From: Eledone cirrhosa
Taxonomy: Eukaryota
Assembly (NCBI GenBank): GCA_964016885.1
Contig: OZ024744.1
Span: 53,940,001-54,004,000, forward strand
Direction of reading: 5' to 3'
DNA length: 64,000 nucleotides
In this document: piece by piece, positions 16,188 through 61,740 of the stretch
Layout of the letters: every line of letters begins with the position of its first letter
How positions within the stretch are numbered: position 1 is the first letter of the stretch
Translations under genes and position numbers: made by a program
Notes under the pieces: model-generated
Told to the model about the DNA's origin: nothing
The model's input: the letters and a program-made list of their open reading frames with translations, nothing else
Databases searched by the model: none

Positions 16188-18688
16188 CTAGCAGATGTAC
16201 CCGGCGTTGACCGGATGTAAGTCGATCTTTGGTCTGTTAGAATGTGTAAAAGTTACTTCCCGCGCATCACAGGTTCAAAACTTCGAACTTCAATGAAAAA
16301 AAATAGGTTAGTAGACACAGGTGTGTAATTTATTAATTGTAGTTACACAGTGTATCGTTGGAATTTGTTCTCTGCACGACTGACGGAAGTCAAAATCGCT
16401 TGATATTGAATGTTCAGTTAATTTAAAGCAGGGTGAAAATGTCGATTACTTTCAGGGTTCTTTTTTTTTTACAACTTTTGCGCTCACATGTGCAGAAGAA
16501 GAATTAAAAGGGCCTAATGGCAAGTCTTTTGTGACAGTTTTCAAGAATATAGGACGTTCCTGTAAAAAGTTTTCCCATGTGTAACTTTGCCTTGTTTTTT
16601 TGCGCAAAGTCGAGCCCCGCTTCAGTTTTATTGATTTTTTACATCAATGCGTGATCTCTGAAGTAGATTTGAGTAGCTAAAAACCTGTCCCGGTAAATTT
16701 GCTATAGGTGAAAAAAAGTTGATCAAAATTGTATCTAGGGTTATTGCCCTTTGCCACAGCCTCAAGCCTCGTCTGACGGGATGTTGGAGATTTCTCCGTC
16801 AGCGCTTGTTGGCGACGAAGGCGAACATCAGCAAGCCTTGTCGTACGTGATGTTGATGACTCAACCATCCGGGAAAGACGTCTATCAGCGAGTCGAGATT
16901 CGCGCTCAGCAGGTGTTTCCTAGAGAAAATTAATTAATTCTACTGGTTAGCTAAGCCAATGGCAGTGTCAATAGTAAATGAGAAAAGTCTAACATGAACA
17001 AAAGGGAATCAAGGTAAGACAATGAATGTAATATAACTACGATTAGAATGTTGTAGTTGCTTAAAAGTGGTGACAGTTAGGATAAACGCAGTACTTGCTA
17101 ACATTAAGGGAGAATATTGCATAAAGGATTAAACAATTGTGAATGAACTCATACATGAGAACGCCTAATTCGTTGTCTCAAAGCAGTAGCTGTACCTTTT
17201 TTGGAGGTAAGTCTTGAACGTTTCCGTGTGGGCATAACGACGTGTAACGAGCTGTTAGGTTAGAGAGAGGTGATTACATACAGAGAGAGATGACACCAGA
17301 TTCGTTAGCATGGTTACTGGTGAATGGGAAGGTTTGGAAATATGATTACAATAACTTACCGAATTTTCCGGTCTATAAATTGTACTTAAAATAATTAAAT
17401 TTAATAAAAAAACAGCTCTGCGCTTTATACTCCGGTGAGCCTTATGTATAAATAATACAATGGTAATCATTCACGGCTCTAACAGAAGTAATAGATCTAG
17501 ACTAAAAGTAAAGGAGATAGCATTTTCCTGGTTGGCCTTACACGCCGTTGCGCGGACCTGATTTTAAATGATACGCCTTATATCCTGGTGAGCCTTATAG
17601 AGCGGAAAATATCTATTGGAAAAGAATACGAATTCATGACCAAGGTGTGACAAAATAGGCGTCTATACAGCGCCTGAAACAAACTTGTCCCAAACCCTAG
17701 GATTTTTCTCGTTAAGTATCCACCCAAAAGGAACCGTTTTTTAGTTACAAAAAATAACCAAAGTGTATAGTAGCTATATTTCTGACATATCATGCCAAAA
17801 AGAACAATATATTCAAAAAATGTTCTAAAGTACATTCAATCTCTCTTTTTGACCGACATCTTAATAAGCAAGTTATCGATTTTTTATTGGCTGTCAGTGT
17901 CTATCTGCATGCAGGTGTGCACGTGTGCGCAATTAATTGCAAATACGCTCATAACATTTAGTCGTAAGCAGAACAAAAAATGCCATTAGAGGTGGGCTAA
18001 TAATTAAGACACAAACCCTGGTGAACTTACGTTTAAACACCCGAAAAGTTACTCACTTCCTGTGCAAAAGACTGTATTATAAATTAAGTAATTATTTAGA
18101 ATCTTTTGTTTAAAAAAGGAAAAGATTAGTACGACGTAACATTTTTTACAACTTTGTATGTGTACAATACAACTTGGTCAACGTATTATTTAGTAATTTT
18201 TTTTTCAAAAAGCCTGATTATTTAAGACTGTTTCAAAATTTACTCACAGCTTTTAGCATCACAAAAGATACCATTAAATTTGGTTCCCTTTTCAGATAGG
18301 GATAATACTGTATTTCCACTTGAATAAGGTGGAATATGAAAAGATAAACTCTTTAATGGTCGGTCGTTTACTGAGACAGCTGGGAAGACATGCAGCTGGC
18401 CGTCCAATCAATAACGCACGTCCTTATATGGGCATATGAAATTTATTTTTATTGCGCCAGATGTAAACAAGGAGTTCTTTTGTTCGAAGTCACATAAAAT
18501 TTCATTGGAATCGAAAAACATTCTGCCATAGGGCCCGATTATCGATTTTTCGAAAGTTTCAAGTATCCTATTCCACTCTACGCGTTGAGTTTTATATATG
18601 TGTGAGGTTTCATGAAAATTAGATGAACGGTGTAGCATGCAAGTTCCGAACACCAAACAATGTCGAATCTTCCCTTTATATATATAGA
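16188..18688 (-). mobile_element. Non-autonomous Helitron (2501 bp)
   Basis: Minus strand starts TCTATATATATAAAG and ends CCGGtcaacgCCGG-gtacatctg-CTAG. Inserted between host A and T with no TSD; the empty site TTATTTA|TATAAG is present in E6 (~38425-38437). Confidence 0.9.
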
Positions 18689-18888
18689 TATAAGAAAAGA
18701 AAAAAAGACATAGAAACATATATATATATATAAACATTAAAAATAAAATTGTAAACAATGAAAAATTCCCCAATAGAGGGGGGGGGGGCCCTCCGAGGGC
18801 TACACGTGACGAAAACCACACAAAAGACCACGGCCACCCAGACCACCAGGGCAAGCGCCTTCTCTCAATTCATTTCCCATTCCCCAAA

Positions 18889-21800: not shown

Positions 21801-22207
21801 CACACAATCCCAGCGTGCATTCAAGATACCGTTCCAGTCGCCCACTAACACTAAAGAGCGGGACGTTCCAAGAAAGGTCTCTAGACGTCTGAAAAAATCT
21901 GGCCGTCCTGCCCCTGTTGGGGCGTAGACGGCTACTAGCCTGAAAGCATTGCCTTCGCTGCCGGTCACGTCCAGCACCACCGACTTACCTTCTGGGTCAA
22001 GGAAGATGGCCCGCATCGCGGGACGGCAACCCCTCCCCCCGATCCTGGACGGCTGGGAGATGCGTATACATCGTAGCCGCCGAAGATCGGTGCGAAGGCT
22101 TCTGCTTCGGAGATTCTGGTTTCACTGATGGCCACCACATCTATGTTTAGTGACCAAGATGACCCCAGGCCACGTGCATTTATAGTGCCTATTCTAAGTA
22201 AGGCCAT
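18889..22207 (-). pseudogene. E2 ORF2 (APE and RT), degenerate
   Basis: TINARGL, VYAPTG, GDWN, LDQSKAFDRVDH, QGCPLS, YADA; several frameshifts. Confidence 0.88.
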
Positions 22208-22239
22208 GTGGGATGAGAAACGGGGCAAGTGAGAAAGGG

Positions 22240-23887
22240 TCACTTACCTTGATCGTGTGGTGAAGGGACAGTAGAACCGTCCCTTTGGCTGGTCATGGGT
22301 GTTTCCAAGAGGATGTCAGTGTATATCATCTTGGTAACCGACACTCTGAAGTCACCAACTGCGTTGGGGAATTTTTGTTTTAAAGGTTTGTACTGTTCTA
22401 TTGAGATTTCAATGATGTTTATGTTTGTCGGGAGAGTTCTTGGTGTTGGTGGGGTGTAGTAGTGTTTTTCTGTGATGTCTGTGTGCTGCTTTATATATTG
22501 TATGAGTTCTTTTTTTGCCATATTTATGGTTGTGTACTTTTTGGGGGAGGGGTGATTTTGTTGCTGTTTTCTTCTTGTTGCTGTTTGGTGTGTGTGTCTT
22601 GTGTTTGCGTTGTTGGTGTTTTTGGTGATGCTGGTGGTGGTGTGGTTGTTGTTGTCAGTGGTGCTTGTGGTGGTGACGGTGGTGGTGTTGCTGCAAGTTT
22701 CCTTGCTGCCTTTACCCCTCTTTGTATGCCTTCGTTTTGGAGGGTGAATCTAAGGGGGTTTTTTTTTTTGATTTTTCGTGGCAGACCGTTTGCCACTTCA
22801 CACCCGCCTCAAACTCCATGTCGGATTCTGTGGCGTCTGGGAGGGCTATGTGCTCCACGGCTGTTGGTGGTGGTAGTGGAGCCCTCTTCGGCAAATTTTG
22901 TTGCTGGTGTAACTACTTCAAATGTAGCTATTGGTGTTGCCGCCACTGATGATGCTGCTTTAGTTGTCTGTGGCCTTGGTACGGGTGCTATTGGCGTTCC
23001 CCTCCTACTCACCGTGGAAGGGGCTTCTTCGTTTGTTGCCTGCCCTGCTCTTGGTAGCAGCGGACCAGGTATTGGAAGGAGAGGGGCCTTCTTCGCTACC
23101 TTTTGCGTGCAAAAGGCCCTAAGTGACCCTTCGACCCACAGAGATAACATTTTGGCTGTCTTCCTTCTACACATATAGGCAGTTGGACTCCTTCCTCGAT
23201 GTCTATGATATCGGGGATAGCGTCGATACATTCCTGGTCAGTTTGTATAAGCATTTGCATGCCTATACCTGACCAGTTCTCTCTCCCTATTATTTCTGCT
23301 TGCAGCATGGTCGTCCTATTCTCGATTCCAGCAAGGACAGACGCGGCCAGCACTTCGGGTGGGATCTGGGTCACTTTCTGCCCGCAGTAGGAAGGCACCA
23401 AGACTATCTCCTCACTCTTTAGGGCTTCCTGGGAGGTGGCGAAAAGTAGTCTACTGTGGCGTACTTTCTGCCTCGGGTGATGTGGGTTTTGAGCGCCCAG
23501 ACGCACCCCAAGGCCTTTTGGATTTGAGCTTCCGTGGCTCTCTCCATTCGATGTGAAATTTTGCTTACGGTGCGGTAAGTCACCGTCCGTAGCTCCTGGT
23601 CCTTAAAAAAATGGGGTGGAGGTTTCAGGGAGACTCTATTGGCGCTTCCTGTCACGATGGCTCTTGCGACTGCCATCTCCTCCTCTGTGACTAACACTGT
23701 CTCGATATTTCGGGCGACACCTGCAAAAGAAATGGTCCATTTTTCTGCAGCACCACTATTGCTGCCGCTACTGGTCTTACTGGTGGTGTTGAGATCGCTA
23801 TTACAGGTATCGCTGTCATTGTTGTTGTTTTCGTTGGTACAGATGTTGGTGTTGTTGTTGTTGTTTTCGTTGATACTGTTGCTGTCG
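22240..23887 (-). pseudogene. E2 ORF1, N-terminus missing
   Basis: VTEEEMAVARA, CYLCGSKGH knuckle and C-terminal ..STVPSPHDQGK*. Confidence 0.75.
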
Positions 23888-23906
23888 TAATAATAATAAT
23901 AATAAT

Positions 23907-27696: not shown

Positions 27697-27872
27697 TTGT
27701 TTCTACTTTTGGCACAAGGCCAGCAATTACCCAGTACATTACTGGTGCTTTATTTTATCGACCCCGTAAGGATGAAAGGCAAAGTTAACCTCCGCGGGAT
27801 TTGAACTCAGATCGTAAAGGGACGTAGCTACGCTGGAAAGCATGTATGACCCTCTACCAATGCTGCCAATTC
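27697..27872 (-). mobile_element. Near full-length tRNA-derived SINE with (ATT)n tail
   Basis: A-box-like TGGCAGCATTGG and B-box GAGTTCAAATCCC. Core GCCTTTCATCCTTACGGGGTCGATAAAATAAAGCACCAG resembles Meta/MESC-type SINE cores (from memory). Five related copies in the window. Confidence 0.82.
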
Positions 27873-36200: not shown

Positions 36201-38308
36201 GTTTATAAACGATTTGTCCAGGTCCACACTGGCGCATTAGGGAAATCTAGTCGGTACCTGTCAGACAGTTGGAACTGGCTGATCAGGTACTTGAGGTTTT
36301 GCACCGCCTGCTCCTATCGAATACTCCCACACAGTCCCAACGTGCGTTTCAGTTCCCCGCTAACAGTAAAGGGCGAGACGTACCCAGAAACGTTTCCAGG
36401 CGTCTAAAGAAATCCGGCCGTCCTGCCCCGGAAGAATGACCATACCTCGAGATCCAGGCCTTTCCTAAACAGCACTGCCACCCCACCTCCCATTCCCAAA
36501 GATATGATAGTCGTCGAAAATAGGGGCTAGTGCACGCGTGTCAGAAATCCGGGTCTCGCTGACGGCAATTACACCCATTTCTAGAGAGTTGAGGTCGTTG
36601 AGCAGGTGACCCTGCTTCCAGGACGATCCCAGACCTCGAACATTTAAACATCCTACTCTTAATATGGCCATGTTGGCAGGCTAAAAGAGAGAGGAAAAGT
36701 TTACTTACCTCCAGGGCTCTTGTGAAGGTCGGGTCGTTTGACCTCCATAGTTGGTGGGGTTTCTTTTGGGAACCCCTTTAAAAGCCTACTTTAAGCTTTT
36801 ACACTGGGTGTTCCCACGTCGTTGGGGAAGCTTTCCCTAATTGTTTTATAATTGCTTAATTCCATTCGCAGCAGCAAGAGTGTTTGTGGCACCTTGAAGG
36901 TGCAGGTGTTAAACGCCTCCCTCTCTTTCTTTTCTTATTTCGTGTTATGAGGTTCAGTAGTTTTGTGTTCGATTTCCTCACTAACACGAAGTTAGGTGTT
37001 GTTGTAATTGTAAGTTGTTGGTGTGTGTGTTTTCTTTTAATTGTTTGTGTTAGTGGTAGTGTTGTTGGTGGAGATGGTGGTTGTCTTGACGGTTGTGTTT
37101 TTGCGGGGGGGGGGGTTGTAGTATATGTCTGTGTTTGGTGCGAATGTGTCTTTTTTGTGTGCTATTTGTGTTGGTGGGTGAGATTTCTTCTTGTGTTTTC
37201 TTTTTCGTCTTTTTGGCTTTTGGTGTTCCTCCTCTTCGCTTAGTGAGGAAGGGGTTTCTGTGTTTGTGTCAGATGTAAGTGGCAGTGCGTGTATGGATGT
37301 GTGTGTGTGTTCGAGAGGGAGGGAGCGTAGAGCTTCTTTGGAGTGGCCCCTGGGTGGTCTTGGTGGTCTTTGCAGTTGTTGGTTATGCTGGTGTTGCTGC
37401 TGCAGATTTTGTTGTTGGTGTTGTTCTTTCGCGACGAGGCCCCGGCGTCGGCAGCAGCGGTGACTTTTGACCCCTTGCATTTTTCAACAGCTGAGGGTAG
37501 AAGGCTCGCAAGTGTGTTTTTTTCGCCGCAACCGAAACAGTGCTGCCTTTTACCTCAGCCATCACTTGTAGAGTCTTGGATCGTCTCTGCCATGACCGTT
37601 AAGTTGGCCCAGGTTTGCTCCTGTTTGTTGAGCAAAACTTTGTCTCCTTGTCTGTCAAGTCCATGTTGAAGCATGGCCTTTTCTTGGCTGCTGCCGCAGC
37701 GAAAGTGTTCTTGTTGTTGTTGTTGGTTTTGTTGCTGTTATCACTGTTGCAGTTGGTTATATCTTTGGTGCCGCCGTTGTTGTTGGTGCTGTCGCTGTTT
37801 ATGTTCTTGTTAGTGGTGTTAATTTCCTTGTTTTTGATGTTATCATTTCTGTTGTCTGTCTTTTGGTTGTCGCTGTTACTGCTGTGGCTGGTATTATCGT
37901 GGGGGGGTATTAAAGGTTATTGTTCTCGCTATTGGTGTTGCTGCTGCAACTATGCTGTTTGTGGTGATGTTGCTAAATGTATTTGTAGTATAAATCAATG
38001 TGTTTGCCGCTTCCCTCCTCTCAATATTTAAGTCGCTGTCACACAACAGACTTAAATGGGGAGGGGGAGGGGGGGGCTCAGCCATGATTTTTTTTATTTT
38101 GTTTTTTTTCGAGAATTTTTTTAAATGCAAAAGAGTTCAAATATTTGGGCCAAAATTCCCAAATATTACACAGTCACCCCTTTAGAGGGCAAAGACGGAA
38201 GTCTTACGAACCCTTTCAAAGAATACAACAATTATTATAAATGAAAATAAACAGAAAATTTCCTACTTTTGCAGAGCTCCAAAATTACGTCGTTACTGAC
38301 TTACAGCC
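33221..38308 (-). mobile_element. Tx1-like copy E5, divergent family C, degenerate
   Basis: ORF2 remnants 33469-36671 (CLNVRGL, SPGLDGLPYE, VSAYADDIT) and ORF1 remnants ~36705-38085. (AAT)n at both ends. Confidence 0.85.
33469..36671 (-). pseudogene. E5 ORF2 (APE and RT), heavily degenerate
   Basis: Motif fragments in ORFs 36465-36671, 35430-35951, 34667-34858 and 33469-33690. Confidence 0.82.
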
Positions 38309-41555: not shown

Positions 41556-44047
41556 TCACTTACCTTGATCGTGTGGTGAAGGGACAGTAGAACCGTCCCT
41601 TTCGCTGGTCATGGGTGTTTCCAAGAGGATGTCAGTGTATATCATCTTGGTAACCGACACTCTGAAGTCTCCAACTGCGTTGGGGAATTTTTGTTTTAAA
41701 AGTTTGTACTGTTCTATTGAGATTTCAATGATGTTTATGTTTGTCGGGAGAGTTCTTGGTGTTGGTGGGGTGTAGTAGTTGTTTTCTGTGATGTCTGTGT
41801 GCTATTTATATGTTGTAAGAGTTCTTTATTTGCCATTTTTATGGCTGTGTACTTTTTGGGGAGACGGGTGATTTTGTTGCTGTTTTCTTGTTGCTGTTGG
41901 GTGTGTGTGTGTTTTGTTGTGTTTGCGATGTTGGTGTTTTTGGTGATGCTGGTCGTAGTGTGGTTGTTGTTGGTGGTGATGCTTGTGTGTGGTGGAGATT
42001 TGCAGCAACACCACCACCATCACACATTTACAATTCTTTGTCTACCTTCGCTTTCTGAGGGTGAAGTTAAGGTTTCTTTTCTTTTTTTCTTTTTTGTGGC
42101 AGATCGTTTGCCACTTCCCTCCCGCCTCACACTTCATATCGGACGCTGCGGCTTCTGGGAGGGGTATGAGCTCCACTGCTGTTGGTGTTAGTAGTGGAGC
42201 CCGTTCTGGCGATTTTACCGCTGGTGTAGCTACTGCCACTGTTGGTGTTGCTGCCACTGCTGCCGCTGCTTTAGTTGTCCGTGGCCTTGGTATGGGTGCC
42301 ACGGACGTTGCCCTCCTACTCACCATGGGAGGGTCTTCTGCCTCTGTTGCCTGTCCTGCTCTTGGTTCCAGCAGGATCAGGCGTCGGAAGGAGGGGGGGG
42401 CCTCTTCTTGCCTCTCTTCTGCGGGGAGAAGGTCCTGAGGTGCTTGTGGTGGTGATGGTGATGGTGATGGTGGTGGTGTTGCTGCAAGTCCCCTTGCAGC
42501 CTTTGCCCTTCTTTGTTTGTCCTCGCCTTTGGAGGGCGAAGCTAAGTGGTTTTTTCGTTTTGGGTTTTTGTGGCAGACCTCTTGCCACTTCACTCCCGCC
42601 TCATACTCCATGTCAGATTCCGTGGCGTCTGGGAGGGGTATGAGCTCCACAGTTGTTGGTGGTGGTAGTAGAGCCCGCTCCGGCGATTTTGCCGCCGGTG
42701 TAGCTACTGCGACTGTTGGTGTTGCCACCACTGCTGCCACTGTTTTAGTTGTCCGTGACCTTGGTATGGGTGCCACGGACGTTGCCCTCCTACTCATCAT
42801 GGAAGGGTCTTCTGACTATGTTGCCTGCCCTGCTCTTGGTAGCAGCGGATCAAGCGTCGGAAGGAGGGGCCTCTTCTTGACTGTCTTCTGCGGGCAGAAG
42901 TCCCTGAGGTGACCCTTCTGCCCACACAGTTAGAACTTTGGGCGCCTTCCTTCCACGCTTATAGGGAGTTGGAGCCCTTCTTCGAGGTCTATGATGTATC
43001 TGATGGTCTCGATGCACTCCTGGTCAGTCTGTATTAGCATTTGCATGCCTATTCCTGACCAGTTCTCTCTTCCCATTCTCTGTATTTGCAGTATGGTGGT
43101 CTTCTCGATTCCAGCAAATACAGACGCGGCCAGCCAAGGTATGGGCACGTCGTGCGGGATCTGGGCCTTTTTGACCCTCACAATTTTCTGCACGCAATAG
43201 GAGGGCACCAAGACTATCTCCTCACTCTTTGGGGTTTCCAAAGACTGACACTTCGCCTCTTGGTGGGTGGCGAAAAGTACGTCTACTGTGGCGTAATTTT
43301 TGCCTCGGGTGATGTGGGTTTTTCCCCCTCCTTGACGCACCCCAAGTTCTTTTGGATTTGAACCTCCGTGGCTCTCTCCATCCGATGTGACATTTTACTT
43401 ACGGTGCGGTAAGTCACCGTGCGCAGCTGCTGGTCTTTGAAGAAATCGGGTGGAGGTTTCAAGGAAACTCTATTGTCGTTTCTCGACACCATGGCTCTTG
43501 CGACTACCATCTCCTCCTCCGTGACTAGCACTGTCTCTCTAATTCAGGCCATACCTGCGAAAGAAGTGGCCCCTTTTTCAGCGGCACCATTATTGCTGCC
43601 GCTACTGCTGCTACTGCTGCCACTGCTGCTACTACTGCTACTACTGGTCTTGTTGTTGGTGCTGTTGCTACTGCTACAAACGGTGTTGTTGGTGTTGTTG
43701 CTGTTATCACTGTTGTAGTTGGTTGTGATTTTGGTGCCACCGTTGTTGTTGTTTTCGTCGCAATTTGTATTGTTGCTGTTGGTGTTGTCGTTGATTATTT
43801 TCTTGTTATTGGTGTTAATATCGTTGTTGCATTTGTTGTCATTTTTTTCTGTTGTCTGTATTTTGATTGACGCTGTTATTGTTGTAGGTGTGGTAATGTT
43901 TTTAAAATTAGTGTTGTCAGTGTTGTTGTCTTTGTTCACGTTGTTTGTGGTGGTGTTTGTTGTATGAATTTCTGTAACCCTCCTCTCAACTTTTACGCCG
44001 TTGTCATACGACAGGAAACATATTGCTGGAGGGCGTGGCTCAGCCAT
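41556..44047 (-). pseudogene. E6 ORF1
   Basis: ORFs 43544-44047, 43283-43531, 42930-43340 and 42042-42800. Confidence 0.75.
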
Positions 44048-44254: not shown

Positions 44255-44285
<31 letters not shown>

Positions 44286-44534
44286 CTTTCTTTATTAACC
44301 ACAATGGTTTACATAAAGTAGACATTAAGGACAGTGCAGGAAAGTACAGTACGGTACAAGTGGGCATTTCTGTGTGTAAAAAACAAAAACAGAGGATGTA
44401 ACAAAAAAATAACAATGAAAAATTCCCAATAGGGGGGAGACTTCGGAGGGATATTTGTGGAGAAAGCCCAGTAAAAGGACACAGTGACCCTGACCACCAA
44501 GGCAAGTGCCCTCTCCCAGTTTTCCACCTTTAAT

Positions 44535-47500
44535 TTACAGATATATATTAAGCGTAGGCCCATTCACTCGGGCCATTCTTGCTTCTCTCACCCATCTTTC
44601 AACAAAATGCTGGGAAGAGAGCACTTCCCTCTCTACTCTGATTTTCCTTTTCAAATGAAATTTCAAAAAGTCAATCAGGGCATCACCGAAGAGGTAAGTG
44701 CTCGTCTTCAGCCCTTTCAAACGTGTCCACCATACTATCTCTTTCGCCATGGCCACCGGACAGATGAAAACTGCCTGCCCTTCCCGGCTAAAGGAGGAGG
44801 GCGGGGAAATCCTCACGATGGGCTCAGATGATAGCCGGATCCATCCTAAATGCGACAGCAGGTGTTCGACATAAACCCACAAGTCAGCAATTTACGGACA
44901 CTGGACGAGTGCGTGCAGGACGGTTTCGTCGCCCTGCGCGCATCTCGGACATGCCCGGCTGACGGCACCTCCATGCCTGTAGAGTTTATCCCGAACTGGC
45001 AAGTTTCCTCGGTAGCACTGCCAGGCCAGAGATTTCTGGAAGTTGTCCATAGGCCCTGGCCCGAAAGTTCTTCCGAAGAGATTGGCTAGTTGATTTTCGT
45101 CGACGCCTAGAGTTTCCCCAAGTACGTCGTCGCTCTTCCCCTCCACTAATCCTCTATAGAACGCCGAGGTGGAGTTTCCACCGATCACATTGCCCGATTG
45201 GTCGAGGGCTGTGAGCGCCTGAAGACATTCCAGTCTCCAGGTGCTCCCTCTCGGTCTTCGCTTGACTCAGGACTGCAGCTCCGTCAAGGAAACGAGCTGG
45301 GGAAATACGTGTCTAGCAAACGACGACAACACCTGATCACCGTCAAGGAAGAGGTGGTAGCCTGAGCGCGTGCCTGCGCATCATCAGCCACGGCATATCC
45401 AGCCCTCCACCTAGCGGGTGTTGACAACAGATGGACCGCCTGACCATCGGAGCGCGTCCCTTCCACAAAAAGCGAAAGAGCAAACGCTCCAGCGCAGTCA
45501 GGCGGGGCTTAGGACAAGGTACGACGGTCAGGCGGTAGCAGATGACAGACGCGATGTACGCGTTAGCCACCTCCGCTCGACCTTTCAGGGATAGCTTCCT
45601 CTCCGCCCATTTCTGGGTTAGAGAAGCCACCCTACTCGTCACCTCGTCCAGGTTTTTGTCCGTCTGCAGGTCCGGACCGAACCAGAACCCTAGCAATTTA
45701 ACCGGTCCGTCCTTCCAGCGTCCGACGACGCTGTTGGACGGCATGGACCTGCCTCTCCAGGTGCCGAGCTGCAGGCCCACTGACCTTTCCTGGTTGATCA
45801 TTGCTCCTGTCACCTCTTCGTATTCTCTTAGTGTAGTGACGATCGCCTCGATGTGTTTGGCGTTCGACACCACTACGGTGACATCGTCCGCAGATTCTGA
45901 CACGGATCTTCCGCATCCTAGTTCGCGCGGGGCGCCCCTCCACGTCTCCAGTTTGTGCAGTAATGGCTCGAGAGTCAATACGTACAAGAGGGACGAGAGG
46001 GGACATCCTTGGCGGACCGAGCGCATGATGTTGAACGGTTCCGAAAGGTGACCGTTCACTCTCACTACAGAGCAGATGTCGCTGTGCATGGCAGCGATCC
46101 AACCTCTGAAGACGGGCCGAAAACCAGCCGCCCTCAGGACTGCCGCTAGGTAACGATGGTCGACCCTATCGAAAGCTTTCAACTGATCTAAATTGATCAA
46201 TGACCCACCCGTGCCAGGTTCCCTAGCTACCCTCTCTACGATGTATCGCATGAGGTGGAGGTTGTCGAGGATGGATCTGTCGGGAATGGCGCACGTCTGC
46301 GCCTCTCCCACCAGACAACTAACGACAAGCGCCAACCTCTTTGCTAGCAACTTGGCCAAAATCTTGAACTCTGTGTTTAGTAGAGTTATGGGCCGGAAAT
46401 TATCTATGTTATCCCCCTTGTTCGGATCCTTTCTCAGCAGTGCCACCGCTCCTCGGCTAACAGAACTGGGAATTCTCCCGTTCTGTTGCCAGTTGCAGTA
46501 GACGTCCGCCAAGAGGCCTCCGAACAAGTCTGGCATCTGTACGTAAAGTTCATAAGGCAGACCATCCAAACCAGGCGATTTACCCCTTGTGCAGCCAGTC
46601 ATTGCCTCCCTTTCTTCAGCGGCTGTTATCGGCTTTTCGCAACACTCCGCCTCAGTGGCCGAGCGCCGCGGCAGTCCGTCGAGGTAGACACTAAAGTCCA
46701 TCCCTCGACCTAAGCCCACCGCTGCCCCCGAACAGCTGAGCGAAGTGTCGCTGAAAAGCTTCACACATTTTCCCGGGATCGAGTAGCATGCGCCCGTCGT
46801 GGTCCACCAAAGACCGGATCGTGGCTTTGTTGCCACGACGTGCCTCCGCCACTCGGGCCCATTGAACCCAGCCTTCGTGCTTTGCATTGAAGAATTGGTC
46901 AAGGGCCAATTCCGCCGCAAGCCCGTCGGTCGCAATGCCTTTGCTAAGCTCCTCGTCTAATTTTCTAACTAGTTCTCTCTCTGTTCTATTTTTCTCTGTT
47001 GCTATAGCCTTACTAAACCTAATCGATTCTATTCTAATCGCTCTTTTCAGAGCAAACCACCACTTGCTGTTGACGATGGCCCCCGTCAACGCCCGCTTAG
47101 CTAGTTCGCTAATGCGGTCTCTGTAGGCCTTGCGCGCTGGTAAGGACGCGTTTAGCTTCCAGTAGCCGGGTCCTCGTCTATGAAGCCGATCTAAGTCAAG
47201 CACACAGATCACGAATTTGTGGTCCGTGTAGATGACTATCTTGAATTGTGGACAGCCTATGCTAGACCTATCTATTTCCCTACAAAATACTCTATCTAGA
47301 TATGATATAAGTCCACATTGGCACATTCGGGAAATCCAATCGGTACCTGTCAGACAGTTCAAAACGCCTGAGCAGGTTGGTGAGGCTCTTGCACCCTCCA
47401 CCCCTATCCGCTAATCCCACACAGTCCCAGCGTGCATCTAAGATCCTATTCCAGTCGCCCACTAACACTAAAGAGCGGAACGTTCCAAGAAAGGTCTCCA

Positions 47501-47876
47501 GACGCCGGAAGAAATCAGGCCGCCCTGCTCCTGTCGGGGCATATACGGCCACTAGCCTGAAAGCTTGCCCGTCTCCGCTGGTCACGTCCAGCACCACCAA
47601 CTTACCCTCTGGGTCCAGGAAGATGGCCCGTATGTCGAAATCCAAACCTCTCCGAAAAAGCACAGCAAATCCTCCCCCCGATCCGGGACGGCTGGGAGAT
47701 GCGTACACATCGTAGCCGCCGAAGATCGGTGCGAAGGCCCGTGCTTCGGAGTTTCTGGTCTCGCTGATGGCCACTACATCTATGTTTAGTGACCTGAGGT
47801 CGTTGAGCAGGTGACCCTGCTTCCTTGACGACCCCAAGCCACGCGCATTTATGCTGCCTATTCTGAGTGAGGTCAT
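44535..47876 (-). pseudogene. E7 ORF2 (APE, RT, CCHC), frameshifted
   Basis: 530-aa RT segment 45343-46935 with SADD in place of YADD; APE in 47292-47876. Confidence 0.88.
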
Positions 47877-47911
47877 GTTTAAAATAGAGTAGAAAAGATG
47901 GGAAAGACCAC

Positions 47912-50022
47912 TTACCGTACTTTTCGTAGAGGAGGGATGGTTTTTACATCCCTTTTCACTTGATCGTCTGTTGAAGGGACGGTTGAACCGTCCCTTCGGC
48001 TGGTCGTCGACTCTTCTATGAGTATGTCCGAATATACTCTTCGATTGAGAGTCCCTCCTAGGTCTCTGAAATCACCACTGCGTTGGGGAATTTCGTTTTA
48101 ATGTTTGTGTATTGTTTCTGTGCTATTTTTAGCAGTCATATGTTAGTTGGCGTTTTGATTGGTGCTGGTATTATGTAGTCGTGTTGTGAAATGTCTGTGT
48201 GTTCAATTATGTAAGTCATTAGTTTCTTGTTGTGTGTATTTATTGCCGTGCATTTGTTTTTCTGGGGGTGGGGTGTGGTTCTGCTATTTTCTTGTCGTTG
48301 TTGCTGGGTGTGTGAGTTTTGTTGTTGTGTTTGCGATGTTGGTGCTTGTGGTGGTGGTGTTGAAGGTGCTGTTGTTGTTGGCGGTGGGGTTGTCGCCGGT
48401 GGTGATGGTGGTGCTAGTGTGGGTGGTGATGGTGTTGGTGGTGTTGCTGCTGTTAGTCTATTCGCTGTAGCCTTTACCCTTTTTTCATTTCTTTCCTCAC
48501 TTTTCGAAGGCGACGATGCGCTGCTTCTGTGTTTGTGCTTTCTTACGACCTTTTGCCATCTCTCTCCCACCTCACACTCCATATCTGATTCTGTGAGGTC
48601 GGTGAGGGGTACCAGCTCCACTCTTTCACTTGTTGTTGTTGGTGATGTTTGCACTGGAGTCTCTGTTGCAGCTGCATTTGGTATTGCTGTTGTTGTTGTT
48701 AATACTTCCACTGCTGCTGCTGTTTTTGATTTCCGTGGCGTGGGTATGGGTGCCACGGACCTATCGTTCCTGGTTGCCGCTTGTCCTGTTGCTGGTAGCC
48801 GTGGAGCCGGTTTCGGAAGGAGGGGGGTTTTCTCCTTTCTCAGGGTCTTCTCGTTGCAGAAGGCCCTGAGGTGGGTCTTCGATCCACAGCGAAAGCATTT
48901 CGGGCGTTTGCCCTCAACACTTATGGGCAGTTGAGTGCCGTTATCAAAGTCTATCACATCCGGGATAGCTTCGATGCACTCCTGGTTGGTTTGGATTAAC
49001 ATCTCAATGGAGGTGCCGACCCAATCTTCTCTTACTTTTTTCTGTACTTGCAGTACAGTTGTTTTGTCCTCGATTCCGACGAGGACAGACGCGGCCAGCC
49101 AAGAAGGGGCCATCCCGGGGGGGGGGGGACATGGGTCAGTTTGACCCTCACAATTTTTGCCCGCAGTAGGAGTGCACCAACACCATTTCCTCGCTCCTTA
49201 GGGTCACTAAGGATTGAGCCTTTGCCTCCTGGGGTTTGGCATAAAGTACGTCTACGGTGGCATATTTCTTGCCTCGGGTGATGTGCGTTTTCCGCTGCCA
49301 CACAGACCCCAAAGCTTTTTGTATTTGAGCCTCTGTAGCTCTTTCAACCCTACGGGATTTTGTACTTACTGTACGGTACGTGACCGTACAGTGCTGTTGG
49401 GTTTCGAAAAAATTTTCCGCTGCCTTGCAGATTGCTCGGTGTCCGGTTTTGTCACCATCTTCTTCGCTTCCTCTAATTCCTCATTTGTTATGTGGATGGT
49501 TTCCAGGTTCTTCGCGATACCTGCAAACGAGATTGGTTTTTCTTTGCTGCTGTTGTTGTTGTTGTCGTCAGAGCTGCTGTTACTTTTGTTGTTGCTGCAG
49601 GTACTACGACTACTGCCGCCGCCGCTGTTGCTGTGGTTGTTGTTGTTGTTGCTGCTGCTAATGCTGTTGTTGTTTATGCTGCTGCTGATGCTGTTGCGGC
49701 TGCTACTGTTGTTTTCATTGTCACTGTTGCTGTTCTTATTACGGCTGCTACTGCTATTATTCCTGACGTCAGACGAATGAAATGGGTTTTCGTATTTCCC
49801 GCACACCTGTTTCGTCGTTGTCGTCGTCGTCGTGGAGAAATCTTGCACGCTTTGCACGAGATTTTTCTTTTCTGTCGTCGCTTGCGATAGAGAAGGGAGG
49901 GAGAGAGACACATTTAGAGAAGGGGGGGAGAGAGACAATCTTCTCTCTGCTGTAGTGACGATTGAGGAAGGAGAAGATGGAATGAGTGGGAGTGACCTAT
50001 GAAAATTCTTTTTCGTAGCCAT
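47912..50022 (-). pseudogene. E7 ORF1 with CCHC knuckle
   Basis: CFRCGSKTHLRAFC in ORF 48136-49113; N-terminal ORF 49366-50022. Confidence 0.78.
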
Positions 50023-50275
50023 GTTGTTTTTTTATTTAAAATAAATATTGGGCACAAAACCCCAATAGGCAGTTATTTAACCCCGAAGGGCCAAATAACG
50101 GGCAGAAAGACCCCTCTCACGGGGAGGAGGCTGTTTTGTCTACAAGTTGGTTAAAGTATTAAACAATTTACAATTGTTATAGCGGTCAACATTTACAATA
50201 CCTTACAGAGCCGAGCCTCCGTAAACCATGGCATTCAATAATAATAACAATAATAATAATAATAATAATAATAAT

Positions 50276-50345
50276 TGTTTCTACTTTTGGCACAATGCCA
50301 GCAATTACCTAATGCATTACTGGTATTTTATTCTATCGACCCCGG
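50276..50345 (-). mobile_element. 5'-truncated SINE in the (AAT)n spacer between E7 and E8
   Basis: Matches the 3' ~70 bp of the SINE at 27697-27872. Confidence 0.82.
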
Positions 50346-53757: not shown

Positions 53758-55665
53758 TTACCTTACTTCTCGTAGAGGAAGGATGGTTTGTCCATCCTTT
53801 TCACTGCTTGTGGCCTCCTCCGGAAGGATGTCCTTATAAATCCTCCTGGAGAGTGCTTGTCGGAAGTCTCCGATATCTTTGGGGAATTTTTGTTTTAGTG
53901 TCGTGTACGTTTTCTGTGTGATGTGAGTGATTTGTATGTGTGGAGGTGGTGTGAACTTTTGAGTTGTTGTGTAGTCTTTTTCAGTGATGCTGGTGTTGTG
54001 TATGATGTAGTGTAACAATTGGTTGTTGTTCAAATTTAATGCTCTGTAGTGTGAATCGTTTCGGTCGTTTTGTTTTGTTTGCGTTTGTTGTGGGTTTGTT
54101 TCTGTTTCGCTTTTTGGTGACTTTTGTGGTGTTGGTGATGGTGGTGTTGGGGTTAATGATGGTGATGGGGTTGGTAATGCTGGTGTGGATGGTGGCATAT
54201 CTCTCCTAACTTTTTTGTTTGATAGTTTATTTGTTTCCCTCTGTATTTTGTTTTTGGAGGGAGAAGGAAGAAAATTTTGTCTTTTTTGGTTCTTTTTTTC
54301 TTTTTTCCTGATACCGTTTCCCACTCCTCGTCGTCACAATCTGTCTCCAGTTGTGATAGGCCGGGGAGTGAAAATCCTCCACAGGCGTTAGTTTTGGTTG
54401 TGGCGTGGTGGATGGTATAGGCGCTGGTGCTAGTTCTGGCGCGTTGGGTGCTGGTGGTGTTGGTTTTGCTACTGTTGCTGGGTTTGTTGCTGCTACAATT
54501 GTTGCTGCCATCTCTGCTGCTGGAGGTGTTGATGGTTGAGTCACTGGGATGGGTAAGATAGGTGGCCTCATCCTCTTAGCCTGAGGGCAGAAAGCCCTTA
54601 GGTGGGTTCCTTCACCACAAACGACACACCTAGGCCTTCTGCTTTCGACGATTACGGTGAAGTGCCTGCCGTCAGTGAGGTCTATTGCCTCTGGGATCTC
54701 CTCAATGCTTTTATGGTCCGCTTGGATCATGAGCTCCATCCCAGATCCGGACCAGTTCTCCTGCTTTTCTGTCGCTATTTCGATTATCTTGGTGTTGGCC
54801 TCGATGCCGGCGAGAACGGCAGCTATTCGCCAGGGAATTTCGATGGCCGGTGGAACGTGGGTCTCCCTGATCTTTACGAGTCTTTGGCCACAATAGCTTG
54901 GGACGAGTGTGAAGTCGTCACTTCTTAATGGGGCCATGGAGTGTTCTCTAGCGTCCTGTGGTGTTTCAAAGAACACATCGGTTCCATATTTCTGCCTACG
55001 TCTGGTGTGGTTTTTTTTTTGCCCACACATGTCCCAAATCCTTTTAGATTTGTGACTCGGATGCCCGTTCCACTCGGCGCGATTTTATGTTAATTGTTCT
55101 ATAAGACACGGTGCATAGGCGCCGGTGCTCCATTTTATTAGGTGGGGGGGGGGCTGAACCTGTACCCATCTTTCTTTACTATTTTTTTTGGCTTCTAATT
55201 CCTCCTGAGTTACCTGAAATGCTTCGCGCTGTTTTGCTACTCTGGCAAAACTCAGGGTGGATTTATTAATTTCATTGTTGTTGTTATCGTTATTTTTGTT
55301 ATTGTTAATTTTAGTTTCAGTTGTGGTGCTGGCGTCAGTGGTGTTCGGTGTGGAAGAGTTCATTTTGGTTGAATTCACTTCGATAACACGAGTTAATTTA
55401 TTTTTTCTTTTGTTTCTGTTGTCGCGGTGGTGGTGGCGGTGGTGGTTGTCGCGGTGGTGGTGGTAGTGGTGGTGGCGGCTTTAACACATGCAGTCATTGG
55501 TAATGGCGGGAAATGAATGTCTGCCTGAGACAAATTTAAAATATTGCTACTGCTTATATTTTTAGTGTTAGCAAACTAACACCTCACACCCACACCACCA
55601 TTTACAATAGTGGTGTAGTTGTGAGGTGTTAGTTTGTGAGGAAGTAGTGACTCTGAGTCATCCAT
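53758..55665 (-). pseudogene. E8 ORF1, frameshifted
   Basis: CVVCGEGTHLRAFC; ends LPLREVR* as in E1. Confidence 0.78.

Positions 55666-55879: not shown

Positions 55880-55926
<47 letters not shown>
55880..55926. repeat. (AAT)n microsatellite ending the minus-strand array
   Basis: Directly visible. Confidence 0.98.
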
Positions 55927-55964
55927 GGGAAGAAGACGCACGAGGTGACGGAAGGTCATGAAAT

Positions 55965-56470
55965 CGCTCCCGTAAGTTTTGAATTTTTAACATATTTAAA
56001 TCATTTGTGAAATAACAACTCTTAGTACAAATGCTACGTAAAGCATCCGGCTTGAGCCCCAAAAGATTCGGACCCAAAATATATTGTTATAAGGCTCAAA
56101 TATTCAAATATTCAACTTTGTATTGTACATTGTATATTCAAAAAAGAAAATGGCTATAAATGGAAGAAGAACCCCCCCCCCCCTCCTCTGTCTACGCTAT
56201 ATAGAACAGCCAAACAACACCAGAAACTAGATACAACACCTACCCCATCACCTCTCTGTGTACACTAAACACAACAGCCAGATAACGGCAATTTCACCAC
56301 CACCACTCACTACTGCCATCATTACCACCACTATCCCATCACCGCCGCCACCACTCCTTCATTGCTACCACCGCTACAACACCATCACTATAGTAATACG
56401 ATCACGTCACCACCACCACTGCCTCGGTATCGACATCACCACCACCACTGTCTCAGTATCGATACCGCCG
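55965..56470 (+). repeat. Repeat X copy 1, probable 5' UTR and ORF1 start of a further Tx1-like family
   Basis: Near-identical to 60894-61740. A-run followed by ATG GCT, poly-Pro and Thr-rich coding, like the E5 and E6 5' ends. Confidence 0.55.
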
Positions 56471-56765
56471 CTACTGTCTCCCACATCTCCTCGCCGCCAC
56501 CACTCCTTCAATGCTACCACCACTATTCCCCTGTTAACTTGAGAGAGAAAGGGGATGGTGGCGGTATCACTAGACAAGGGAAGGGCTAGCAAAAGATATA
56601 AATAGATTGACTTAGTGACCTGGCCAAGGCCAAACGACAATATCAACATATATGGGACTGCTGGCTCACCCCTTCCTCACCAACAATATAAAAAGCCCCG
56701 GCACCACCACCGACATAGCCAACAACAATAACAGCCAACTACAACAAAAAGTATATTATATTATT

Positions 56766-56818
56766 GTAATGCACTGGGTGATTGCTGGCCTTGTGCCTGG
56801 AGTGGAGACAATTATTAA
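56766..56818 (+). mobile_element. Short 3' SINE fragment
   Basis: TAATGCACTGGGTGATTGCTGGCCTTGTGCC..AGACAATTATT matches the SINE tail. Confidence 0.65.
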
Positions 56819-56900
56819 TAATTTCATTCTTAAGCCACGCAATGCTCACATTAAGGAACCACTCATGATAATAACAATTTAAAAGAAAAAAAAAAAAAAA

Positions 56901-59900
56901 ACCCCGTGACCAAGAAATACCGGGATGGCGGCCGGCGGGGAATAGCCGTGTCTCTAGGGGAGAACGTCTTGGTTGACACTCGTTCTAGAAGTGGTAACAC
57001 GAAATGATTACCCCTTGGCGGATAAGGATAAAACGCGACAAAATAAAGTAAATGTCTAATGATAAAATCTCATACCGGATCGGCCATCATCCGGGTAAAA
57101 AAGGGCCGCGTCGCTCAGAGAGGAACCAGACTGGGGTCGAAAAATCAGCTAATGGTTCAAACCTTCCCATCACTTCGGAGCTGGAGACCTCCCATAACCG
57201 GAATACTCCTACTGTTGGCCCTCCATGCTCACCACCAAGAAATCCAAAGAAAAAGAGAGAAAAATTGTCAAGGGAAGATAATAAAGAAGTCCTTGAGGCT
57301 TTCTACACTGCCATGTACTACCCATCAAATACATCGAATACAGAACAGACATATATCAACTGGAAAAAGAAACATCCCGAAAACAGAGGCTATATTGACA
57401 GTAACAAACTAGCCAATATACGAAGAAATATTGTAAGAAAAAAGTTACTAACTGATATAGAAATTGATCAGATAAAGCTATTAGCACAAAGTCAGCGAAG
57501 GGAAAATGAAACATGTGTCAGTGAAAACGAGGTAAACTGTAACACTTCGAATCCCAGGGTTGGGGCGGAATCACTGGCAACAGAACAAATTAAAGAAAGG
57601 ATCGAAAAAGTGGAGGGAGTGCATGCTCAGGATGAAACTCCAAATGAAAATAATGAGATCGTAAATGATAAGGAAATGAATGAGAATGAACTTGCCAACT
57701 TGAAGGATGAAATTATGATCGAATGGATGAAAATGAAAGAATCTGACATGGGGCAACGAGACACCCTCCCTAAGATCCAGAACTCCAAACAGAACCAAAA
57801 GATAATACACAAGACTAACATAATTCTCAAAAACATTATCATCACAAACAAACTAAACATTACTGATTTAAATCATCTCTATTATGCATCGGCTAAAGTC
57901 ACCACTCACTTATGTGGAGTGAAGATGAAAAAACAAAGGAATTCCCACAAGAAATCTACTTGGCAAGAGAACATCAATCGCCAAATAAACCTTCTCCGAT
58001 CTGACATAGAAATTTTAACAAACTATAAAGTAGGTGAACATGTTAAATAAACTAAACTTAGAAAATTGAAAAAAAAGTACAGTATAAAATCAACATGTGA
58101 CATAGACATGCTGATAGAAATAATCAAGCAAAAAGTGTCGGCCAAAGCTGCTCGTATAAGGCGCTTTGAAAAACGATCTAGATTCTATAAGGACAATAAT
58201 ATGTTCAAAAACAACCAAAGAAACTTCTACAGAAAAATTGGTAAGTCAACAATAACTGCTAAATCAATACCTCCCAAGGAGGAAGTGCAAGAATTCTGGG
58301 AAAAGATCTGGGCCGAAGAAAAAGTTCATAACATACATGCCCCATGGATAGACAGACAAATGAAAGATACAGCTCACCTTGAGGAACAAATATGGGAAAA
58401 TATAACAGTTGAACAGTTGCGCTTGACTCTAAGAAAAACCATCAAATGGAAATCCCCAGGAAAAGACAAAATACAAAACTTTTGGATAAATGCCTTCACA
58501 GAGTCTCATGAGCTGTTAGCCCAACTTTACAATGAAGTAGTTAAGGAGCCAGAAATGATACCTTCATGGCTAGTTAACGGCATTACATTCCTGCTTCCGA
58601 AGAATGATGAGACAAACAATCCCAAAAATTACAGACCGATAACTTGCTTGACCACAATGTATAAAATTTTAACATCAGTCCTAACTGAATACACATATGA
58701 CCACCTGATAACAAATGACCTATTTCCCATTGAGCAGAAAGGGTGTAAACGAGGCTCATATGGCTGTAAGGATCAGCTTCTGGTTAATAAAATGATACTG
58801 GAAGATTGTCATAATAGAAACAAAAATCTATCGATTGCTTGGATAGATTATAAAAATGCATTTGATAGTTTGCCACACAGTTGGATTGAAAAATGTTTAG
58901 AGATTTTCAAAGTATCCCCCGTTGTCAGGAGGTTTTTGTCATTCAGTATGAAGACATGGAAAACGACACTCCTTTTGAATAGTGAAACAAAATCACTGGA
59001 AGCTGGAGAAGTTAATATTAATTGTGGAATTTTTCAGGGTGACTCTTTATCACCGCTTTTATTCTGCATCGCACTTATACCATTAAGTAAAATGCTCAAT
59101 GAAACAAAACATGGATATAGAGTCTATGACAAAACCATTAATCACCTGTTCTACATGGATGATCTGAAACTATTTGCAAAAAATGATGAACAATTGCAAG
59201 GGCTATTATCCACTGTGAAGCAGTTCAGTGATGACATTAAAATGGAGTTTTGACTAGATGAATGCGCCAAAGCAACGTTCACCAGAGGAAAGCTGCTGAA
59301 GAGTTCAGACATTAATCTTGATCGGGGGAACGTGATAAGAGAACTTGATCAAGAAAAAACTTACAAATATCTAGGTGTTTGTGAAGGAGACGGAATCAAG
59401 CACTCGACAATGAGGGAAAGGATAAGGAAGGAATGTTACCGCAGAGTAAGAGCAATCTTAAGAACGGAATTGAATGCAAGGAATAGGATCGATGCCATAA
59501 ACACGCTTGCCATACCAGTAGTAAGCTACAGTTACAATGTCATCAACTGGTCAAGCACAGAGATCCGTAGGCTCGATACAAAAATTCGAAAATTCTTAAC
59601 CATGCACAGAATGCATCACCCTAAGGCAGATATAGATAGAATATAGCTCCCTAGGAAAGAAGGAGGACGTGGGTTAATCCAGTTAGACATTGCGTTGAAA
59701 ACTGCAACAATTGGATTATCTACATATCTAAGGGAATCACATGATTGGATGATCAAACTCGTTTTGAAACACGAAAGCATCAAAAGATCATATTCCATTA
59801 CAAAAGATGCACAAAGATACAGTAATGGACTACAAATTTCAGAAGTCCTATTTACTGCTGAAATGGAAAACACAGAAAAAGCAAAGCAGGTAAAAGTAAC

Positions 59901-60845
59901 TGCAAAGAAAGAACTGCTACAGAAACTGGCTAAGAAATGGCAAGAAAAGCCTCTGTATGGAAAATACCCAGAGCGAGCTAACAATCCTGATGTTGACAAA
60001 ACTTTAACCCATCAGTGGTTGGCATCCTCTGAACTGAAATCGGAGACTGAAGGACTGATTATATCGGCACAAGATCAGTGTCTGCCAACAAAAAATTACC
60101 AAGCCAACATAATAAAAAATGGGTGCAGCCCATTATGCCGTGTATGCAAAAAACAACCAGAGACCATTGACCATATAATTTCAATGTGCAGTCCTATAGC
60201 TCCAACCGAATACCTAAACAGGCATGACAGAGCTGCACAATACATACATTGGATAATGTGTAAGCATTTTGACCTGCCCCATCAAAAGAATTGGTGGGAG
60301 CATCAACCACCTCCCATACTTGAAAAAGATCACATCTCAATCTTGTGGAACTTTAGCATCCAAACAGACCGAAAAATAAATGCAAACAGACCTGATATAA
60401 TATTGAAAGACTTTCAAAAGAGGGTATGCCTGCTAATTGATATGTCTGTTCCAATAGACAAGAATGTATCTATAAAATCATTTGAAAAATTGAGCAAGTA
60501 TAAGGACCTGGAGATAGAAATTGGAAAAATGTGGAAATTGAGAACTAAAACAATACCAGTGGTTGTAGGCGCTCTGGGAATGATACCTAAGGGGTCTAAT
60601 GATTACATATCGCAAATCCCAGGAAACCCGCGTATAGGAGAAATACAAAAGATAGTATTAATGGGAACTGCCCATATACTAAGGAAGATTCTGTCAATAT
60701 AAGTACATCACAAGTCTAAACACTAAAGATGCATGTGTGAATATGTATGTTCTTTCTTGAACATGGCGGACCTTGTTGTCTCTTGAGGTCACTGGTTGTG
60801 ACTTGGTGATAACTCGTATGAACATAAAGCAAGATAAATGCAACT
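56901..60845 (+). mobile_element. R4/Dong-clade element, family D1, full length
   Basis: Single long frame with RT, CCHC and RLE; 3' UTR near-identical to 1117-1256; (TAA)n tail at 60854-60890. Confidence 0.9.
57052..60702 (+). pseudogene. Dong ORF (~1216 codons; RT, CCHC and RLE endonuclease) with three in-frame stops
   Basis: ORFs starting 57052, 58066, 59332 and 59695 share one frame. WKSPGKD, NYRPITCL, QGDSLSP, YMDD, YKYLG, CRVC..ETIDHIISMC, RHD, RPD, KLSKY. Confidence 0.9.
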
Positions 60846-60851
60846 GTAATT

Positions 60852-60892
<41 letters not shown>

Positions 60893-60893
60893 G

Positions 60894-61740
60894 CGCTCCC
60901 GTAAGTTTTGAATTTTTAACATATTTAAATCATTTGTGAAATAACAACTCTTAGTACAAATGCTACGTAAAGCACCCGGCTTGAGCCCCCAAAAATTCGG
61001 ACCCAAAATATATTGTTATAAGGCTCAAATATTCAAATATTCAACTTTGTATTGTACACTGTATATCCCAAAAAAAAAAAAAAAAATGGCTATAAATGGA
61101 AGAAGAAGAACCCCCCCCCCTCCTCTCCTCTGGCTACACTATATAGGACAGCTAAACTCACCAACACCAGAAACTAGATACACCACCCACCCCATCATCT
61201 GTGTACACTAAACACAACAGCATTTTCACCTTCACCGCCACCGCTCACTACGGCCATCATTACCACCACTATCCCATCACCGCCGCCACCACCCCTTGAC
61301 TCCTTCACTGCTGCTGCCACCGCTACAGCACCATCACTACAGTAATACGGCTGAAATATTCAAATATTCAACTTTGTATTGTACACTGTATATCCAAAAA
61401 AAATAAAATGGCTATAAATGGAAGAAGAAGAACCCCCCCCCTCCTCTCCTCTGGCTACACTATATAGGACAGCTAAACTCACCAACACCAGAAACTAGAT
61501 ACACCACCCACCCCATCATCTGTGTACACTAAACACAACAGCATTTTCACCTTCACCGCCACCGCTCACTACGGCCATCATTACCACCACTATCCCATCA
61601 CCGCCGCCACCACCCCTTGACTCCTTCACTGCTGCTGCCACCGCTACAGCACCATCACTACAGTAATACGGTCGCATCACCGCCACCACTGCCTCGGTAT
61701 CGACATCACCACCACCACTGTCTCAGTATCGCCAACGCCG
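60894..61740 (+). repeat. Repeat X copy 2 with an internal ~325-bp tandem duplication
   Basis: 61027-61350 is repeated at 61354-61671. Confidence 0.7.

Follow-up and report, generated by a model that had tools for sequence, protein, structure and literature searches.

A recombinant LINE family of Eledone cirrhosa that joins the ORF1 and ORF2 of two identifiable parents at a splice donor-like motif

Results

The window, by which we mean the whole stretch of DNA that was analysed, is 64,000 nucleotides of Eledone cirrhosa contig OZ024744.1 (positions 53,940,001 to 54,004,000) and belongs to a genome of 3.0 Gb. Its minus strand carries a run of LINEs of ~6 kb each, E1 to E8. One of these, E7, had been described in a sequence-only reading as a chimera of family A and B-related sequence whose junction falls on a splice donor, and which might therefore have been born by splicing. 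The features of E7, and the corresponding sites in neighbouring elements, are as follows, with a slash marking the junction or the donor-like cut here and below.

44255..50236, minus strand: E7, a full-length but decayed copy of the chimeric LINE family C, late subfamily, as judged from the 5' end at 50236, the ORF limits, the tail and late-type alleles
50237..50275, minus strand: (ATT)n target repeat, the insertion site of E7, as (ATT)n precedes 67/67 full-length 5' ends
47959..50236, minus strand: P-derived part of E7, comprising the 5' UTR and ORF1 up to GATCAAG (89-93% to P loci, CCHC, diagnostic sites)
50022, minus strand: ATG of E7 ORF1
near 48897, minus strand: the one CCHC knuckle of E7 ORF1
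47959..47960, minus strand: AG common to both parents at the junction, a 2-nt microhomology that is also the exon side of the P donor-like site
47912..47958, minus strand: A-derived end of E7 ORF1 (KRDVKTIPPLRKVR and stop), a second copy of the terminal module already supplied upstream by P sequence
47950..47952, minus strand: G run with one extra base relative to family A, restoring the A reading frame
47910..47915, minus strand: A-type donor-like motif, GTAAGT, sharing bases with the stop codon of ORF1
44535..47876, minus strand: A-type ORF2 with endonuclease, reverse transcriptase and zf-RVT domains, disrupted in E7; its diagnostic sites against A number 26
44255..44300, minus strand: AATAAA signal and (ATT)n tail of E7
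22242..22254, minus strand: GATCAAG/GTAAGT in E2, which has a B-type ORF1 and is itself an in-register chimera of B and P
41558..41570, minus strand: GATCAAG/GTAAGT in E6 (family B)
53796..53811, minus strand: ACAAGCAG/TGAAAAGG, the family A site in E8; likewise at 5000-5015 in E1

All of the junction motifs quoted in the sequence-only reading for E7, E2, E6, E1 and E8 were found in their places, and on the minus strand of E7 GATCAAG occupies 47965-47959 and is followed by TGAAAAGG at 47958-47951. The window also contains an unrelated open frame of 1,205 codons on the minus strand (10212-13829) and, on the plus strand, an element with a 321-bp tandem duplication (55888-61700), of which 59587-60871 is 97.7% identical to window positions 2-1283.

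An intact relative of E7, L162, has an ORF1 of 720 amino acids (L162:2897-5059) and an ORF2 of 1,139 amino acids, the latter with an N-terminal AP-like endonuclease (PF03372), a reverse transcriptase (PF00078) and a C-terminal zinc-binding domain (PF13966, zf-RVT). The separate ORF1 carries a nucleic acid-binding motif, the CCHC knuckle; it matched nothing in Pfam, a homologue search at E ≤ 0.001 came back empty, and its C-terminal KFP...GDFR block is common to families A, B, P and C. Among homologues of ORF2, 45 of 46 bear no element name. Judged by ORF layout and predicted domain content, the elements would be LINEs of the L1/Tx1 type. One report names L1-Tx1 as a recently active class (PMC13282606).

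A genome search for further copies with the same junction, as the sequence-only reading had suggested, showed that the junction is a trait of an amplified hybrid LINE family, family C, with 2,314 exact matches to a 24-nt junction pattern compared to 1,971 exact matches for the own site of family A. All 40 scored matches span the full 301 nt of the junction query at 96-100% identity, which together with the number of exact matches shows that the chimera is not due to chance, and the junction was present in 30/30 loci read. The ORF2 of E7 is of family A type, as had been stated, matching A far better than B. Its ORF1 had been called B-related, and a patchy likeness to B is indeed apparent; however, the true donor is a third family, P. 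This family emerged from a search for ORF1 ends of the E7 type without the following T, which gave 53 matches, and the 30 that were read comprise 20 copies of P and 10 point variants of C. Given that the ORF1 side of P is 89-93% identical to E7, whereas the ORF1 of B is ~63-70% alike, we assign the ORF1 of family C to P. The ORF1 of P ends GATCAAG/GTAAGT (20/30 loci read), spelled CCAGACGATCAAG/GTAAGTGATCC. On its ORF2 side P is B-like, with 74-78% identity to E7 and 84-92% to E2 in 19 untruncated loci, and P is therefore the parental element, with an E7-type ORF1 and an ORF2 of its own, that had been proposed for a search. Both parents of C are still in the genome, P having given the 5' UTR and ORF1, and an old A the ORF1 tail and ORF2. 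From the 53 matches, two thirds of which are P, and a decay of ~3%, we estimate the copy number of P at ~100. In five P-junction copies (L136, L349, L350, L134 and L301) the alleles towards the 5' end of ORF1 are of the C type, which suggests either back-flow from C into P or a younger subfamily of P.

Family C can be resolved into age layers that approach both parents progressively with age. Diagnostic sites at which C differs from P number 67 in 2.3 kb of ORF1, and those at which it differs from A number 26 in the 3.8 kb on the ORF2 side. An early subfamily, with 206 matches, is the same as the old-A majority along 1,450 nt, bar one extra base and one polymorphic site. The oldest layer has 4 differences from P in 900 nt and is identical to old A bar one extra base. 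In addition, the last 60 nt of ORF1 are homologous between P and A, and C holds both versions in tandem. Such a duplicated terminal module, staggered by one module, marks C as a derived recombinant, and with the closeness of the oldest C to P and old A it supports the earlier view that the E7 arrangement is recombinant and not ancestral. In trees of ORF1 and ORF2, C stands apart from P and from A, but truncated and mosaic rows distort these trees, and we therefore relied on the diagnostic sites. Family C is thus an ORF1/ORF2 recombinant LINE family, derived, with both of its parents identifiable.

As claimed, the break on the P side lies exactly at AG/GTAAGT, with a 2-nt ambiguity due to the shared AG. 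The donor-like cut of P is in phase 1 (CAA G/GT AAG TGA, ending DQGK and stop), whereas the AG of A is in phase 2 (AGC AG/T GAA AAG GAT, ending LREVR and stop); therefore, a clean join of P to A is out of frame and an open frame needs an extra base. That base is present: after the join A reads AG/TGAAAAGGAT and C reads AG/TGAAAAGGGAT, one base longer, which restores the A frame. The fused frame that had been reported for E7, RDGSTVPSTDDQVKRDVKTIPPLRKVR and stop, is correctly translated and open, but only by virtue of this one base after the join. The extra base is found in 99 of the 100 early C copies listed. Only 6 C copies are without it, five of them ranging from oldest to late and one with too little ORF1 to date, and their frequency is the rate of sporadic slippage. 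Among the oldest C copies sampled, the majority form is TGGAAAGGG, which is two edits from A within 7 nt, and a minority read TGAAAAGGG; with a biased sampling of these oldest copies, either form may be the earlier one. The 8-nt match of E7 to A may therefore be partly secondary, as the oldest C is mostly TGGAAAGGG and not TGAAAAGGG. We looked for a subfamily of A spelled in the manner of C, and there was none: 9 sites read TGAAAGGG, 5 read TGAAAAGGG and 0 read TGGAAAGGG, compared to 1,971 plain A sites.

The position of the break invites comparison with splicing. It is the only AG/GTRAG in the ~6 kb of P, within the consensus donor GATCAAG/GTAAGT, and on the A side it is preceded by a CAG, and the 7 nt next to the join contain one or two edits. 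The pyrimidine tract of this would-be acceptor had been judged poor, and it is, with 50% pyrimidines and rank 60 of 178 YAG sites by pyrimidine content. A nearly whole ORF1 and an ORF2 with its own spacer would confine viable breaks to ~100 nt around the donor-like motif, and if viable joins do lie within ~100 nt of the ORF1 end, we estimate that a break would coincide with the donor by chance in ~1-3% of cases. In A, C, P and B, as in four more distant lineages, a G/GTA(A/G) motif shares bases with the ORF1 stop, and where the frame is readable the motif occurs in two reading frames (R and stop, or GK and stop).

Window 47877-47915 and 36672-36708, L131:157-211, L139:8453-8491, L308 and L344: G/GTA(A/G) motif at the ORF1 stop

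Since it is kept across lineages in two frames, the motif looks constrained as nucleotides, which suggests that it does something. Downstream of it lies a pyrimidine tract, usually followed by CAACATG. In E5-type and L131-type elements an AG before the ATG results in GT-AG-like stretches of 28 to 48 nt, and in A and C there is a 52-nt GT...CTCAG stretch whose loss would fuse ORF1 to ORF2 in frame. No copy without this 52-nt GTAAGT...CTCAG mini-intron was found in the donor screens described below, which would have caught its loss.

Insertion of these elements is strictly into (ATT)n, a single simple-repeat target: of the 67 full-length 5' ends, all of which follow (ATT)n, 27 lie directly behind the tail of another element, and 114/118 3' ends carry (ATT)n themselves. 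Given a strict (ATT)n target and an (ATT)n tail, we consider it most likely that the arrays are self-built, with elements inserting into each other's tails. Mixed-family head-to-tail arrays with a spacing of ~5.9-6.1 kb occur genome-wide (L165, L172, L176, L180 and L289). The tandem order on which the splicing proposal depends, P directly upstream of A, was confirmed: of the 37 P loci fetched at 10 kb, 5 have a 5' end of A directly behind P. In L180-L182 the A copies at 11345 and 17240 have nearly identical ORF2 sequences with the same premature stop, suggesting tandem duplication by unequal crossover besides new insertions. The target is often supplied by a short interspersed repeat ending AGTAGAAACA before (ATT)n (window 50280-50345, 5240-5315 and 27740-27860), which we presume to be akin to a cephalopod SINE; the same repeat occurs inside the ORF1 of E1.

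Among these arrays, L124 and L125 (G000:C2:46713000-46730000, minus strand) have the order C→P→A, and the A copy, just downstream of a full P copy, has old-A alleles and is one of 5 A copies with the rare extra G. Were the P/A pair of L124 spliced, the product would be in frame and would have the TGA form of early C. As a candidate source of C, L124 gained no confirmation from allele sharing: every allele that it has in common with C is polymorphic in P or old A, and its P is without alleles common to nearly all of the oldest C. None of 47 distinct P copies has both of the junction-proximal C alleles, and no source locus was found.

We screened 3,147 intact A/C donor anchors with three patterns that jointly catch ~81% of random joins and miss ~19%, the donor screens being restricted to copies with intact anchors. 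All 18 distinct matches were read, and no GT-AG join was among them. Most are small indels, and there are one inversion and two long deletions. In the inversion (L373, near 1500), inverted upstream A sequence begins two bases past the donor cut, resembling a twin-priming inversion. At P and B donors there were 43 matches, 31 of which were read and are C variants, while the other 12 begin TG as C does; again there was no GT-AG join. No product in which an A or C donor is joined to the same acceptor was found in A/A or C/A tandems, though such tandems are frequent. Repeated, independent use of the ORF1-end donor was therefore not encountered in the genomic copies, and donor-joined copies are bounded below about 1 in 1,000. 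Four sequence runs of unknown kind, as contigs, were also compared with the C copy L158: one contig each in X7 and X5 runs without a break through junction and donor, and among the 15 joints listed of 479 none lies at the donor. Given the unknown kind of the runs and the shortened list, we count this comparison on neither side.

One of the 18 matches, and the only one starting at the cut, is L244, in which a deletion runs from the donor cut of C and lands after ACG rather than AG, with a 3-nt ACG microhomology. It bears on a model in which the donor is used without an acceptor, a free 5' exon of P with its 3' end at GATCAAG being ligated or trans-spliced to A, or jumped onto by the reverse transcriptase copying A, with the extra base added at the jump. 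Such a model would account for the exact donor end together with the one or two edits that lie no more than 7 nt from the join, and human L1 chimeras with 5' exons that end at donors, sometimes acceptorless, are described (10.1101/2025.02.02.635956). However, L244 has microhomology of its own, and in vivo cleavage of the donor is an assumption of the model, which we regard as improbable.

In another scheme, a crossover at the 5-nt AGTGA common to P (GTA-AGTGA, including the stop codon) and A (GC-AGTGA) was followed by a 5-nt slip between AAG repeats that only mimics a splice. The same 5-nt GTAAG slip was seen at A donors in 2 of 5 matches. Against this, a genome pattern search for the intermediates gave 0 matches for each, the extra base is still needed, and the TGG of the oldest majority form breaks the AGTGA match, making the two-step scheme very improbable.

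The sequence-only reading had asked for the breakpoints of all chimeras to be tabulated relative to the donor, and had named scatter as an outcome that speaks against splicing. Scatter is what we observed: of 57 large joins, 0 lie within 10 nt of a donor and 1 is GT-AG compatible. The commonest class of these joins has 2-nt microhomology (11), and filler or mismatched bases are present in 28. A looser count gives 2/63 as GT-AG compatible, but it counts family-level indels repeatedly, and the count of 57 is the stricter. Hybrids between elements arise elsewhere: L289 is an independent staggered P-to-A hybrid in which P at donor+542 is joined to A at donor+14 with 2-nt microhomology, and L307, L132, L346 and L157 are further independent staggered hybrids. 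Overall, 6/68 copies are mosaics or hybrids with a family switch inside ORF1 or ORF2; L128 and the second copy in L172 had appeared to be A mosaics and were excluded from this count, as their later columns are unrelated DNA. E2 (window 18676-23890) is an in-register chimera, in which the ORF1 and 5' endonuclease of B (E6-like) give way to a P-type ORF2 between +336 and +427 after the donor, inside ORF2. A few per cent of copies are staggered hybrids, and these rarely hit both the viable window and the donor.

Discussion

E7 is a copy of an amplified hybrid family, and its join was probably made by microhomology-mediated joining at the AG that the parents share. A would have inserted into the (ATT)n tail of P, after which, or in the course of which, the ORF2 of P and the ORF1 of A would have been lost by end-joining. 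A jump of reverse transcriptase from A RNA to P RNA is an alternative route to the same product. One extra base near the join would have restored the A frame, and selection would have kept a join in which ORF1 is almost complete and ORF2 retains its own spacer. Template switching at a 2-nt AG microhomology had been offered earlier as the alternative to splicing. The microhomology join is the part of that suggestion that we favour over a splice, while a jump of reverse transcriptase and end-joining lead to one product. Microhomology of at least 2 nt marks 5'-truncated L1 junctions (PMC11702581). By a rough comparison of rates, splicing and microhomology would come out near even before the detail of the junction is considered. 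The extra base and the adjoining edits are expected of reverse transcriptase jumps or end-joining (PMC8857657, PMC11702581), and they tip the balance to the microhomology join. What weighs against it is the placement of the break on the only AG/GTRAG of P, the CAG on the A side, the conservation of G/GTA(A/G) and the L124 pair, in which an A with the extra G follows a full P. In the search for a source, no locus emerged that would demonstrate a deletion of DNA.

Those same observations, the exact donor placement and the CAG, are what cis-splicing explains best: a read-through P→A transcript would be spliced from the P donor to the CAG of A and then retrotransposed, the extra base coming from the source A or arising right afterwards. 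The five P loci directly followed by A provide the arrangement, L124 provides it with an A bearing the rare extra G, and there is precedent in spliced retrocopies of L1 (PMC5860796). However, a clean splice is out of frame, the acceptor is weak and distant, GT-AG joins were not found behind the 3,147 A/C donors or at the P/B donors, the P of L124 is without alleles that nearly all of the oldest C share, and none of the 47 P copies has both junction-proximal ones. Much of the original proposal of a splice-born chimera has stood, in that E7 is recombinant, amplified and derived, breaks at a donor and has P→A arrays to draw upon; the GT-AG retrocopies and the intact frame of a clean splice have not. 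Splicing is still partly supported, as a single rare event leaves no trail of GT-AG retrocopies, but we consider it unlikely, at well under the probability of the microhomology join. The wider proposal is equally doubtful. Under it, (ATT)n targeting would have put A behind P in an array built by the elements themselves, and splicing across that array would have given rise to C as an autonomous LINE family. If it were true, the conserved donor at the ORF1 stop of P would be a built-in point of exchange between ORF1 and ORF2.

Shuffling of ORF1 between LINE lineages has been described, with DNA-level or RNA-level recombination being suggested (Metcalfe and Casane 2014, PMC4120745). As in family C, the ORF1 of one lineage is joined to the ORF2 of another. 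However, those swaps are inferred from deep phylogeny, whereas a single genome supplies the two parents of family C, its exact junction and a stepwise series of ages. The model given there, of a truncated element inserting between the ORFs of another, fits C poorly because C inserts into (ATT)n. SpIREs resemble C in that the retrocopy junction coincides with a splice donor (Larson 2018, PMC5860796), but they are intra-element and are called dead ends, whereas C is inter-element and has copies with intact ORFs and 2,314 exact matches. In addition, the donor screens found no donor-joined copies beside C. In mRNA/L1 chimeras the 5' partner likewise ends at a donor and the acceptor may be weak or absent (Law and Burns 2025, 10.1101/2025.02.02.635956); there, that partner is a host gene exon and the chimeras are single insertions, whereas in C it is the ORF1 of another LINE and the product is a dominant family. 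No description of family C or of a splice-born autonomous LINE family was found in the titles and abstract openings of the open-access literature searched.

Some LINEs of the Tx1 type, such as Kibi, Koshi and the like, target microsatellites, with simple repeats as their insertion sites. The elements described here share with them two ORFs, the combination of endonuclease, reverse transcriptase and zf-RVT, a CCHC motif in ORF1 and a strict simple-repeat target. They differ in that the (ATT)n target is also their own tail, so that copies stack into mixed-family arrays. Exchange of ORF1 among LINEs is already known (PMC4120745), and what is new is an unusually well-preserved swap in a self-stacking, (ATT)n-targeting group.

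Swaps of ORF1 and ORF2 between LINEs are usually inferred from old, conflicting trees, and here both parents, a junction resolved to the base and an age series are at hand. The hybrid has become as abundant as its ORF2 parent (2,314 compared to 1,971 exact matches), and the ORF1 parent P has stayed rare, outgrown some twenty-fold. If splicing made the junction, it would represent a route by which the spliceosome can create a successful transposon family, and not dead ends. The arrays indicate that the choice of target can feed recombination, as elements that insert into their own tail repeat stack different families in a head-to-tail order, and hybrids of neighbouring elements can be seen.
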